Below are positions 3,295 to 9,910 of a stretch of DNA of 32,212 nt, in pieces. Each line of letters begins with the position of its first letter. Position 1 is the stretch's first letter. Below the pieces are notes generated by a model that worked only from the letters and a program-made list of their open reading frames with translations, searched no databases and was not told the origin of the DNA. Position numbers and translations under genes: made by a program. Source of the DNA: Malassezia furfur (Eukaryota); NCBI GenBank assembly GCA_052055015.1, contig JBQJIT010000086.1. One strand, written 5' to 3'.

Positions 3295-6200
3295 CTAAGA
3301 TTGAGCAGGTAGTACATGGAATGCATGGAATGGAGTTGGAGATTCAACTGACCACTCAAGTGATGATGCATGTCCACCTTCTAGCCAATATACTGGAGTA
3401 GATTCAAAGAATCCTGGTACTTCCCATGGGTTAGCTTCAGCTTCTTCACCATATGCAAGTGCATCGTAAATTGTATATGCAAATACAAAGATAGCAGCAA
3501 GTGAAATTAGACTACCTACAGATGAGATAGTGTTGTATGGTGTGAAAGCATCTGGGTAATCAGGGATACGTCGAGGCATACCTGAGATACCTAGGAAGTG
3601 TTGTGGGAAGAATGTTAGGTTAACACCAGTAAATAGAGTCCAGAAATGGATTTTACCTAGTGTTTCGTTATATGTTTTACCAACGATTTTTGGGAACCAG
3701 TAGTAGAATCCCGCAAATAGTGCAAATACAGCACCCATTGATAGAACATAGTGGAAGTGAGCAACTACATAGTAAGTCAATTAGTAATAGAATATATTAT
3801 AAATATATTGTAAACATGGACACTATCTTCACAGATAGGATCGGACCATATCTTCAAATAATAAATAAAGAGTATTTATAATATTATTTGTGCTACGTAT
3901 GGCCTCTACGGTTTCTAATGAGTAATGAATATAATAATATATTATTAATGTATAATCAAATCATTAGTTACCACGGTATTGTCTTAATAAAGAGTTGCTT
4001 AAATAATATCTAGCCCAGATAGATTTTATTAAGATTTCACCGTTAGCATATTTATTTCTCTTTCTATCTTTCTATCTTTCAAAAGAAAGAAAAAGAAGAT
4101 AAAAAATAAAAATAAATATACCGAGAGTATAGTCCAAGATAACTCTCATAGTAGCATGACAACATGACACTTTTTAATTTATTATTTAATTATTAAATTA
4201 TTAAATTATTTAATAAGATAATTTAGTTTAGGATTATTTTGAATAAAATTACAAAGTTGTACGAATTGATATCCTTGAAGAATAGGTTTGCAATGTTGAA
4301 CAACTTTAGTAATATCATTAATAGATTCAAAAGAGATTACATAAATGCAGTCTTTATTAGTATTTTTGGAATATTTGATTTGGATTTTAGCATTTGTATT
4401 GTAGAATTTTAGAATAGCATTCATAAGATATTTATCATGAGTTTGATCAATACTAAATGAATAGTTTTTATTCATCTTTTGAATAGAGAATGAACCTTTA
4501 GCTTCAATAAAACCAGCTAGCCATTCATTAAAATAGAAGGGAATATTATTAATAAGACTAAAATCCTTATTTTGTTGATCAAATTTATTCTTTTTTGTTT
4601 GGATATATTCTTGAACATTGGAATGATTCATACAATTAATTAGAAATAGTAGTTGGAAATGAAATCGAGATGTAAGAGGTGGATATTTTTTTAGGATTGG
4701 GATTAGTTTATTTTGGATATGATTTTTATCATTAACAGTTCATTGTACAAATTGTTGATTCTTATTATTGGTAACAGATGTAAGAGATCCTACCATAATA
4801 ACGATGAACAGTTTTAAGCATATCATAATTAAGTGGTTTATCACTAAGTTTGATAACAAATCGATATTGAAGACATTTCATTTTCCAATGATTAACTTGA
4901 ATAGAACCATTGCCTTCAAGTAGACCTACAAAGAATCGATCAAATTGATCTTTAGTTAGTTTATTTGGTTTAAATAGATTTTTCATAGTAAATAAGATGA
5001 ATAGTAGATTATTTCTCTTTTGTGAATAATAATAAATTAAAGTTTATCATGTAGGGCAATATCAAGACTAGCATTTGATAGTGTAATACCTGTTACACCA
5101 CCGATTGTAAATAGTGCTAGGAATCCAATAGAGAATACCATTGGTGTGTATAGTCGAACTGAACCACCGTAGATTGTAGCAAGCCAACTGAAGATTTTAA
5201 TACCTGTTGGTACACCAATAATCATTGTTGCGGCAGTAAAGTAAGCTCGTGTATCTACATCTAGACCAACTGTGAACATATGGTGTGCCCAAACTAGACA
5301 ACCAAGTGCACCAATTGTAGCCATAGCGTAAACCATACCAAGGTATCCAAATACTGGTTTAGATGAGAATGTTGCAATAACTTGACTAATAATTCCGAAT
5401 CCAGGAATAATTAGGATGTATACTTCAGGATGCATAAAGTAAAATGGACTATATCATCAACAAAAGAATGAATAATAAATAATAAAGAATAATACTAATA
5501 ATAAGTAAAATAAAGAATTGATAATTCAGAAATAGAATTCCATTTATTCATAAAATAAATCCAAGCTTTATGATGAATATTATTAGGTTTATATGCTTGA
5601 AATTGAATAAGATGATAATATTTTTTAATAAGATAGAATCGTTTAGCATTACAACTTCGTAGTACATGGTTTTTAGAATAATTATAGAATGTTATATGAT
5701 CTGTAAAAGATTGAATAGACCATTGATAAAATCCATTCTGACTTTTATCGAAATGGATTTGACCACCAAAGGTTTTAAGATATTCATGAATATTTTTATA
5801 TTCTTTATCTTTAACTTGGATAATAAGTTTAGGATTATCTGAAGATGTAAGATAAATAGAACCTTTAGCATCAAAGAATCCAGCAAACCATGATGAATGA
5901 ATATCAAGATTAATTGGCATAGTAGGTTGAATATTAAGTTTATGACAAATAGCATGTAGTTGATGGATACGTTTAGAATGTTGAATATAACCATTAACAC
6001 GATGAACAATTTGGATTAGTGTATCTTTATTTTGAATACGATATCGGTATGCGTTAGCACCAGCACGTAGTTTAATAGATCCACCAAATTGATTTTGAAT
6101 ATATCGAAGCATTTTAATATTATGATGATTAACAATGATTTCAAGTGAGCAATGATCTTTTTTAGAAATCATAAAACAACCATTACCATCAATAATACCT

Positions 6201-9200: not shown

Positions 9201-9910
9201 TTATTAGAAATAGTAAAAGTACCAGAACCATCGGTAATACCAACGAACCATTTAGCAAAATGATCAAAAGAATTATTTGATTTAGAAAATAGACTATAAA
9301 ATGCATTACGTGTAGTCTCTGATGGTTTAAATTGAATATGATTAAACCAGGCAGATTGTCCTCATGTTGATGACATTTTTACATAATTATATTGAGATAG
9401 TAGATTAGTAGTCATCTTCGTGCATAGGTTCGATTTAAGATAACGATTATGCTTGAGGAGTTTTCCGCATCGAGTAATATTTTTAGACAGCTTATCCTTA
9501 ATATAGCAATAATAATAGGACATATTAACTGTCCATCCAGGACCAGCACCGTGCTCAACAAGAGCACTAGCGATTAGAAGGATTAGGCTAGGAGGAAGTA
9601 GCCAGAAACTAATGTTGTTTAGTCGAGGCATAGCCATATCAGGAGCACCAACCATTACTGGTACGAAGTAGTTACCAAAACCACCCATTAGAGCAGGCAT
9701 AACCATGAAGAAAATCATAAGGAATGCATGAGCAGTAATGATAACGTTAAATAGATGATGGTTACCAGCAAGAACTTGTGTACCAGGTGCAGATAGTTCC
9801 ATACGGATAAGTACAGAGAATGCAGTACCTGCAAGACCTGAGAATACAGCAAAGATAAGGTAAAGTGTCCCAATGTCTTTAGCATTAGTAGAATAAAGCC
9901 ATCGTGTCAT
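3295..9910 (-). CDS. cox1: Cytochrome c oxidase subunit 1, six exons: 9910-9528, 8367-8139, 7896-7803, 6549-6539, 5432-5046, 3777-3295 (1587 nt, 528 aa)
   Basis: Exons join in frame to give [14 protein letters not shown]...GWTV/YPPLS...[13 protein letters not shown]...HLFW/FFG/HPEVY...[13 protein letters not shown]; each intron follows an exon T and ends in G. Confidence 0.97.
3778..5045 (-). mobile_element. cox1 intron 5, group I (probably IB) with LAGLIDADG ORF
   Basis: Interrupts LHD/TYYV; T|...G| boundaries. Confidence 0.92.
4206..4986 (-). CDS. Intron 5 double-motif LAGLIDADG protein, split by a +1 frameshift (extra A at 4791) and an in-frame TGA (4740-4742); recoded gene or young pseudogene
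   Basis: Motifs [11 protein letters not shown] and [14 protein letters not shown]-track pieces 4765-4986 and 4206-4631 join via YYG-[A][16 protein letters not shown](TGA)TVNDK...KYPPLTSR. Confidence 0.8.
5433..6538 (-). mobile_element. cox1 intron 4, group I (probably IB; FFG/HPE site, equivalent to yeast aI4)
   Basis: Interrupts FFG/HPEV; T|...G| boundaries. Confidence 0.92.
5495..6538 (-). CDS. Intron 4 double-motif LAGLIDADG protein, open and in frame with exon 4
   Basis: Motifs [12 protein letters not shown] and [12 protein letters not shown]; no stop between the end of exon 4 (6539) and the ATG at 6427. Confidence 0.9.
   Translation of the reverse strand, partial: YISLWPFVDGYNYFNLTSNYAVCWNDLQYQFNPDINVMPTNSVSNLFSILIVSKYNIHTNTFLNSKNGLTKIQSAGNQRYVSNQSDLPNLVGTSETTRVTTKDNNNSFNQWLAGIIDGNGCFMISKKDHCSLEIIVNHHNIKMLRYIQNQFGGSIKLRAGANAYRYRIQNKDTLIQIVHRVNGYIQHSKRIHQLHAICHKLNIQPTMPINLDIHSSWFAGFFDAKGSIYLTSSDNPKLIIQVKDKEYKNIHEYLKTFGGQIHFDKSQNGFYQWSIQSFTDHITFYNYSKNHVLRSCNAKRFYLIKKYYHLIQFQAYKPNNIHHKAWIYFMNKWNSISELSILYFTYY
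6550..7802 (-). mobile_element. cox1 intron 3, group I (probably ID) with LAGLIDADG ORF
   Basis: Splits the TGG codon of HLFW; core at ~6655-6770 resembles both cob introns. Confidence 0.92.
6920..7780 (-). CDS. Intron 3 degenerate double-motif LAGLIDADG protein with one in-frame TGA (7424-7426)
   Basis: Motifs [12 protein letters not shown] and [15 protein letters not shown]-track pieces 7424-7780 and 6920-7225 share a frame with only the TGA between them. Confidence 0.82.
7897..8138 (-). mobile_element. cox1 intron 2, 242-nt ORF-less group I intron
   Basis: Interrupts VLAG/AITM; core elements (GCTGGAAA, AATCAGCAGG, GACTACACG, AAGATATAGTC) present. Confidence 0.92.
8368..9527 (-). mobile_element. 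cox1 intron 1, group I (probably IB) with LAGLIDADG ORF
   Basis: Splits the Val codon of GWTV/YPP; T|...G| boundaries. Confidence 0.92.
8453..9527 (-). CDS. Intron 1 double-motif LAGLIDADG protein in frame with exon 1, with three in-frame TGA codons
   Basis: Motifs [12 protein letters not shown] and [12 protein letters not shown]; one frame from exon 1 to TAA at 8453, with TGA at 9362-9364, 9185-9187 and 8861-8863. Confidence 0.85.

Follow-up and report, generated by a model that had tools for sequence, protein, structure and literature searches.

UGA codons at tryptophan positions confined to intron-encoded LAGLIDADG genes in a Malassezia furfur-like mitochondrial genome

Background

The stretch of DNA analysed here, referred to below as the window, comprises 32,212 nucleotides (nt) of contig JBQJIT010000086.1 from the Malassezia furfur assembly GCA_052055015.1. 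It carries mitochondrial genes, among them a cox1 gene whose intron-encoded LAGLIDADG open reading frames (ORFs) contain five in-frame TGA codons. The genes present are nad5, nad4L, atp8, cox1, atp6, rns, cox2, nad1, rnl, nad2, nad3, cox3, nad6, rps3, cob and nad4, together with 18 transfer RNA (tRNA) genes, and the protein encoded in the first cox1 intron is 97% identical to its best match, a Malassezia furfur protein. Published M. furfur mitogenomes measure 45.7-49.3 kb and have 24 tRNA genes, with an inverted repeat whose arms, each about 8 kb long, hold atp9, trnL and trnR and flank trnM and trnH, according to the passages cited here of Theelen et al. 2021 (PMC8510979). Since atp9, trnL, trnR, trnM and trnH, which make up exactly this repeat and spacer gene set, are the genes missing from the window, the window represents the single-copy region of a mitogenome like that of M. 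furfur, and the inverted repeat, accounting for about 16 kb of the mitogenome, lies outside it.

Results

The cox1 gene, as read here, extends over 3295..9910 on the minus strand and comprises six exons and five introns; all features of the gene given below lie on the same strand. Exon 1 (9527-9910) continues in frame into the intron-1 LAGLIDADG ORF (8453..9526; motifs DGSG and EVQG), which contains three TGA codons. A free-standing LAGLIDADG ORF in intron 3a (6920..7780; EGNL and DSNA) and the LAGLIDADG ORF of the last intron (4206..4986; EGNG and EAKG) contain one each, and that of intron 3b (5495..6538; DGNG and DAKG) contains none. The five codons reported by the initial annotation were located in the window as TCA on the plus strand, i.e. 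TGA on the minus strand, and the peptide contexts given for them match. In the intron-1 ORF they correspond to W57 (9362..9364, in STWGQSAW), W116 (9185..9187) and W224 (8861..8863), in the intron-3a ORF to W119 (7424..7426) and in the C-terminal half of the last-intron ORF to W19 (4740..4742, in FVQW). Homologous proteins, in which the initial annotation had proposed looking for tryptophan, do have it at four of these sites in 88-100% of the covering rows. In an intron-1 alignment made from 25 of 169 matches (the top ones and the named ones), tryptophan was found at W57 in 22 of 25 rows, the other three having arginine, and at W116 and W224 in 90% or more of these rows; at W19 it was found in all nine covering rows of a total of 12. 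The column of W119 is mixed, with tryptophan in 10 and phenylalanine in 5 of 15 rows.

This placement is real and non-random, and TGA in the window is restricted to intron ORFs, at tryptophan columns. Among the 4497 in-frame codons of the core set (13 core genes and rps3), tryptophan is encoded by TGG 60 times and TGA is never found, whereas the intron ORFs have 5 TGA against 16 TGG (Fisher p = 8e-4); the two other frames of the same core genes contain TGA 46 and 151 times. The freedom of the core genes from internal TGA had been noted for 14 genes, a number that needs correction, as the window has rps3 and, of the 14 standard core genes, all but atp9. It also holds that every gene ends in TAA or TAG, TGA never serving as a stop in the window. 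The intron ORFs have no in-frame TAA or TAG in 1249 codons, and one-step mutational routes in them number 418 to TAA or TAG against 21 from TGG to TGA. The chance that five random nonsense hits would all be TGG-to-TGA changes is 1e-7 to 3e-5 for transition/transversion ratios of 1 to 10, and 0.03 under a model allowing G-to-A changes only.

When TGA is read as tryptophan, three of the ORFs have both LAGLIDADG motifs in one frame, as the initial annotation had claimed for all of them; the claim fails for the last-intron ORF, whose motifs lie in different frames. Here an N-terminal half (4792-4986) and a C-terminal half (4206-4790) are separated by a 1-nt frameshift near 4790-4792, at GGT AGG A, and are otherwise open. 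The N-terminal half corresponds to residues 68-127 of an intact homolog and the C-terminal half matches from residue 127 on in the other frame. The frameshift may reflect decay, or a +1 shift at this hungry codon may be tolerated; AGG, the codon at this point, does not occur in any core gene. In the database the ORF is represented by protein P0139, in which the N-terminal half is translated out of frame. Scores for the Pfam family LAGLIDADG_1 (PF00961) were 48.1, 47.4, 97.4 and 55.3 bits, compared with a gathering cut-off of 23.1, which the N-terminal half of the last-intron ORF narrowly misses at 21.6 bits.

The acidic residue that closes each LAGLIDADG motif is needed for DNA cleavage. Compared to the consensus DGDG/EAEG, both of these residues are replaced in all four window ORFs, so that their products probably lack endonuclease activity. 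Loss of the catalytic residues need not abolish maturase function in LAGLIDADG proteins, and a maturase role is possible for the four proteins encoded here. The replacements, D to S or N and E to Q, N or K, mostly correspond to G-to-A changes.

The only trnW found in the window (26126..26197, plus strand) has the anticodon CCA, the anticodon loop C U C C A A A and the pair U11:A24. The earlier report of a single tRNA-Trp(CCA) is thus borne out within the window by ARAGORN in three modes and by Rfam, and none of the ARAGORN modes detected a tRNA with anticodon TCA there. The 18 tRNA genes of the window and six in the repeat and spacer add up to the published total of 24, leaving no room for a second trnW in the gene count given in the passages cited above. 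Repeat-side DNA of three related loci (L001, L002 and L006, described below) yielded trnL(tag) and trnR(tcg) only. A mitochondrial release factor of the RF2 type, mtRF2a, is absent from fungi according to the portion cited of Duarte et al. 2012 (PMC3472500), so that nothing would compete with a tRNA at UGA. The U11:A24 pair was considered as evidence for UGA reading and was dropped on account of its frequency in tRNAs.

Six codons, TGA, TTA, TTG, ATA, AGA and AGG, each occur 0 times among the 4497 in-frame core codons; in the two other frames of the core genes they occur 6 to 307 times. All 627 leucine codons of the core genes are CTN. The window's intron ORFs use the same codons sparingly (TTA 3, TTG 1, ATA 6, AGA 1, AGG 1 and TGA 5 in 1249 codons), a total of 17 versus 0 in the core genes (p = 5e-12), and 98 of their 102 leucine codons (96%) are CTN, the four TTA or TTG codons all lying outside the intron-1 ORF. 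The window has no tRNA matching AUA, and the gene count in the cited part of the published description suggests that trnL(UAA), trnR(UCU) and an AUA-reading trnI would be absent from the entire mitogenome.

For comparison across the genus, seven Malassezia intron-1 proteins were aligned and the alignment was used for scans, which recovered 12 metagenome loci and one locus from a bacterial metagenome-assembled genome (MAG), labelled L001 to L013. Ten of these (L001-L009 and L013) are Malassezia-like, with the gene order trnS(gct)-cox1-atp8 and cox1 exons 80-100% identical, and the cox1 intron sites are identical in position across the genus. L010 comes from another fungus (24% G+C, TTA-rich) and was used as the outgroup; L011 and L012 were left out as weak partial matches. 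L002 and L003 have the same intron-1 ORF sequence as L001, and the same codons at the three intron-1 TGA sites of the window; they were omitted from the codon alignment, which therefore contained the window and nine loci (L001, L004-L010 and L013). The eight aligned Malassezia-like copies share 42-45% amino-acid identity with the window. L013, a Malassezia-like cox1 fragment in a MAG labelled Anaerococcus, probably reflects contamination at the binning stage.

None of the six codons was found in the core segments of the Malassezia-like relatives, defined as high-scoring segment pairs with at least 35% identity and E <= 1e-20 (76-2050 codons per locus). Each Malassezia copy of the intron-1 ORF contains 2-3 TGA and 2-8 ATA codons, the ATA count being 5-8 in the Malassezia-like loci, and no TTA, TTG, TAA or TAG; the outgroup copy in L010 has 20 TTA. 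The lack of TTA and TTG in every Malassezia copy suggests that these ORFs have been shaped by the translation system of their host.

The intron-1 ORF has seven conserved tryptophan columns, of which five switch between TGG and TGA and none contains TAG or TAA. At alignment column 258 (W57) TGA is found in the window only, with TGG in all nine relatives aligned. Column 355 (W116) has TGA in the window and all ten Malassezia-like loci and TGG in L010, while at column 470 (W224) the window, L001-L003, L007-L009, L013 and L010 have TGA and L004-L006 have TGG. Two further columns at which the window has no TGA behave similarly: column 491 has TGA in L006 only, a copy 96-97% identical to L004 and L005, and column 578 has it in L004-L009 and L013. 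At W119 of the intron-3a ORF the window has TGA, where L004, L005 and L013 have TGG. The distribution suggests that at W57 and W119, two of the five window sites, TGA was derived in the furfur lineage.

Ratios of nonsynonymous to synonymous substitution (dN/dS) were calculated by the Nei-Gojobori method over alignment columns 250-600 of the intron-1 ORF. Nine pairs among the non-furfur lineages with dS of at least 0.027 gave 0.23-0.47, and one near-identical pair (dS 0.005) gave 0.78; comparisons of the window with the others gave 0.58-0.73, with dS near saturation. The motifs DGDG and EAEG are intact in the intron-1 ORF of L001, L004-L006 and L009, alongside 2-3 TGA codons each. The comparison thus shows persistence and turnover of TGA under selection that keeps the ORFs open. 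Columns with ATA in one Malassezia copy were also inspected: in this alignment the other copies show ATG (Met) in 36, Val in 24 and Ile in 10 cells. The frequent pairing of ATA with Met does not settle the meaning of AUA, as G-to-A change of ATG and of GTA explains it equally well.

Additional features of the locus were noted. The second cox1 intron is 240 nt long and has no ORF. Between intron 3a (6550-7802) and intron 3b we read an 11-nt mini-exon (6539..6549; GG TTC TTC GGT, completing W-F-F-G), on the grounds that exon 3 ends in T, that the upstream intron ends in G and that the frame of the mini-exon runs on into the following ORF. The introns on either side of it belong to group I; the cited passages of the published M. 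furfur description (PMC8510979) regard introns 3a and 3b as a single intron that has two ORFs. The intron-3b ORF is uninterrupted in the window and L006, and its homolog lies in two reading frames in L001 (8193-9210), L004 (5557-6571), L005, L007 and L008. Comparison of this ORF was dropped as evidence, as it is split in five relatives and the alignment of TGA columns close to the break is unreliable. The trnC(gca) gene (25888-25960, plus strand) has an irregular cloverleaf and was detected by the mitochondrial mode of ARAGORN only, being missed at the Rfam gathering threshold.

Discussion

Turnover of TGA at tryptophan columns, in ORFs that are open, under purifying selection and cleared of TTA and TTG, argues that these ORFs are translated and that TGA is no terminator in them, and the total avoidance of TGA in the core genes argues that its decoding is poor. 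On balance we favour the view that UGA, without a release factor, is slowly read as tryptophan by tRNA-Trp(CCA), and that only intron ORFs with weak expression tolerate it. The initial annotation had spoken of a weakly decoded sense codon that may throttle maturase output. The sense-codon part of this is supported by the persistence and new appearance of TGA at tryptophan columns of relatives' open ORFs, with the dN/dS values of 0.23-0.47 and, in some, intact motifs; weak decoding and throttling are plausible, and a regulatory role of UGA as a throttle would be a guess. We infer the identity of the decoder and of the amino acid inserted, as well as any role of UGA in limiting or throttling the rate.

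The course of events that we favour can be outlined. UGA in Malassezia mitochondria would be neither a stop nor a normal sense codon, having no release factor and no matching tRNA, and would hence have been purged from every core gene like UUA, UUG, AUA, AGA and AGG. G-to-A mutation would repeatedly convert TGG to TGA, a change that may be near-neutral in weakly expressed intron-encoded LAGLIDADG genes. There, the ribosome would pause at UGA until tRNA-Trp(CCA) inserts tryptophan, either through a C34-A mismatch or with a modified or edited C34, and the full-length protein would still be produced, only more slowly.

Several observations weigh against this proposal. The case for translation of the intron ORFs is a comparative one, and in the window itself the four ORFs lack both catalytic acidic residues, one of them is frameshifted, and the dN/dS against other lineages is 0.58-0.73 at near-saturated dS, so that the ORFs of the furfur lineage may be decaying. 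Homologs in M. brasiliensis are short (164 and 132 amino acids). With regard to the decoder, the DNA examined of other Malassezia contigs does not include trnW, and the inverted repeat lies beyond the DNA examined. Moreover, the passages cited from a study of Schizosaccharomyces pombe (PMC7200024) state that, apart from lysidine, no modified C is known to read A, and that primer extension saw no difference at C34 in that yeast.

The loss of catalytic residues, the frameshift and the raised dN/dS make decay a rival to be reckoned with in the case of the window lineage: its intron ORFs would be untranslated dead relics, UGA would be unreadable, and TGA would mark early decay under G-to-A pressure. 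This would also accommodate the 12 other codons without cognate tRNA in the window's intron ORFs and the truncated or split homologs in M. brasiliensis and several contigs. It appears unlikely nonetheless, as neither TAA nor TAG has arisen in the 1249 codons despite the 418 one-step routes, TGA is restricted to tryptophan columns, leucine codons are still 96% CTN, the same TGA sites occur in relatives' ORFs that have purifying selection and intact motifs, and catalytically altered LAGLIDADG proteins may still be maturases. Group I introns with homing endonuclease genes move horizontally, and TGA could alternatively have been inherited along with introns recently transferred from donor mitochondria that use NCBI translation table 4 (code 4), an explanation reportedly proposed for zygomycetes by Seif et al. 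in 2005. The outgroup L010 would be in line with this origin, its core exons using TGA, TTA, ATA and AGA and its intron-1 ORF having TGA at the W224 column. However, TGA at W57 and W119 is found only in the window lineage, so the idea of a relic from code-4 donors, as raised in the initial annotation, does not hold for at least two of the five and is insufficient on its own. The TGA of column 491, confined to one of three nearly identical copies, speaks against import as well, as do the genus-wide intron sites and the Malassezia codon dialect of the ORFs, with no TTA or TTG in any copy of the intron-1 ORF. We consider this origin quite improbable.

Efficient dedicated decoding of UGA, by C34 edited to U or modified, by an imported suppressor tRNA or by UGA-to-UGG editing of the mRNA, would sit well with the genus-wide UGA at W116. 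Imported tRNA-Trp undergoes C34-to-U editing in trypanosomatid mitochondria; editing of this kind is not known from fungi. For S. pombe, modification of C34 has been put forward (PMC7200024, in the passage citing Bullerwell 2003). Under efficient decoding, however, an AT-rich genome should use TGA in its core genes, and it is found at 0 of 60 core tryptophan codons in the window and at none of the 76-2050 core codons per relative, which makes this explanation highly improbable. The same complete avoidance in the core genes stands against ordinary code 4 with a trnW(UCA) hidden inside the inverted repeat. Although about 16 kb of the mitogenome falls outside the window and GenBank records of these genomes carry table 4 (as given in the cited part of PMC10113387), the published repeat holds atp9, trnL and trnR, with trnM and trnH in the spacer, and the 24 tRNAs are accounted for as 18 + 6 in the passages cited of PMC8510979. 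In addition, the repeat-side DNA of L001, L002 and L006 has only trnL(tag) and trnR(tcg), and a hidden trnW(UCA) is accordingly hardly credible.

Slow reading of UGA by tRNA-Trp(CCA) may be part of a wider two-tier code, which we put forward tentatively and as a possibility only. Six codons would have been purged from the core genes, while UGA and AUA would have been kept genus-wide only in intron-encoded proteins, where slow near-cognate reading by C34 or G34 would keep endonuclease or maturase output low; AUA may in this scheme stand for Met.

The parallel with S. pombe drawn in the initial annotation is apt. The passages cited of PMC7200024 describe rare UGA(Trp) codons with tRNA-Trp(CCA) as the only tRNA-Trp. 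As in the window, the encoded anticodon C34-C35-A36 is followed by A37-A38, and UGA is an infrequent codon that most core genes lack; its decoder is described there as unexplained, a modified C34 being proposed. Unlike the window, where rps3 has no UGA, S. pombe has UGA in rps3, and the window differs further in that its core genes have lost five other codons along with UGA. Mitochondria using NCBI table 4 (ascomycete type) resemble the window in that UGA stands for tryptophan in alignments; they differ in having tRNA-Trp(UCA), whereas the window has a CCA trnW and no TGA among its 60 core tryptophan codons. Near-cognate read-through of UGA by tRNA-Trp(CCA) is known from bacteria, as in the leaky UGA of Bacillus subtilis and the Hirsh suppressor G24A of Escherichia coli, where RF2 competes at UGA. 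The C34-A wobble mismatch proposed here would have the same chemistry as the bacterial read-through. The U11:A24 pair of the window tRNA-Trp is the state made by the Hirsh mutation, and this likeness has little weight because the pair is common in tRNAs generally.

Among basidiomycetes, UGA is absent from 15 non-intronic proteins of Ganoderma lucidum and stands for tryptophan only in the intron protein IP4, according to the passages cited of PMC3753355, which, unlike the window, list a tRNA with UCA anticodon. Rhodotorula taiwanensis has TGA eight times in 10 intronic ORFs and once in 15 core genes with 73 TGG (PMC3633354, cited passages). For Phlebia radiata, with trnW(CCA) and no UGA in conserved ORFs, the authors infer in the passages cited (PMC4019555) that table 4 is not used and that several UGA-to-Trp assignments took place within Basidiomycota. 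As far as these passages go, the three species share with the window a UGA confined to, or enriched in, intronic ORFs. TGG/TGA turnover under selection and the added loss of UUR, AUA and AGR are, among the passages compared, reported here only. A pattern of UGA(Trp) confined to intron ORFs is hence already in print for S. pombe and several basidiomycetes, and what the Malassezia case adds is the genus-wide evidence for selection and the six-codon gap. Our literature search found no published account of mitochondrial codon loss or UGA use in Malassezia; supplementary tables, which may list anticodons, were outside the search. A mitovirus paper (PMC9965874) contributed no specific information. 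The terms TGA, UGA, trnW and tryptophan occur nowhere in the main text of PMC8510979, PMC10113387 and PMC3560662 where searched, their supplements again being outside the search, and no mention of codon loss was found in PMC5389616, where UGA/TGA was not among the terms searched.

Conclusions

How a tRNA-Trp with a CCA anticodon copes with UGA in fungal mitochondria is a question raised for S. pombe, and Malassezia would offer a clean natural test of it. It is a culturable yeast genus in which the core genes are free of UGA, while UGA is retained, gained and lost at conserved tryptophan sites of intron-encoded ORFs under purifying selection, and the purge of UUA and UUG from the intron-1 ORF in every copy serves as a built-in control. 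For annotation, table 4 would give the right intron-ORF proteins, yet it hides an effective code without six codons.

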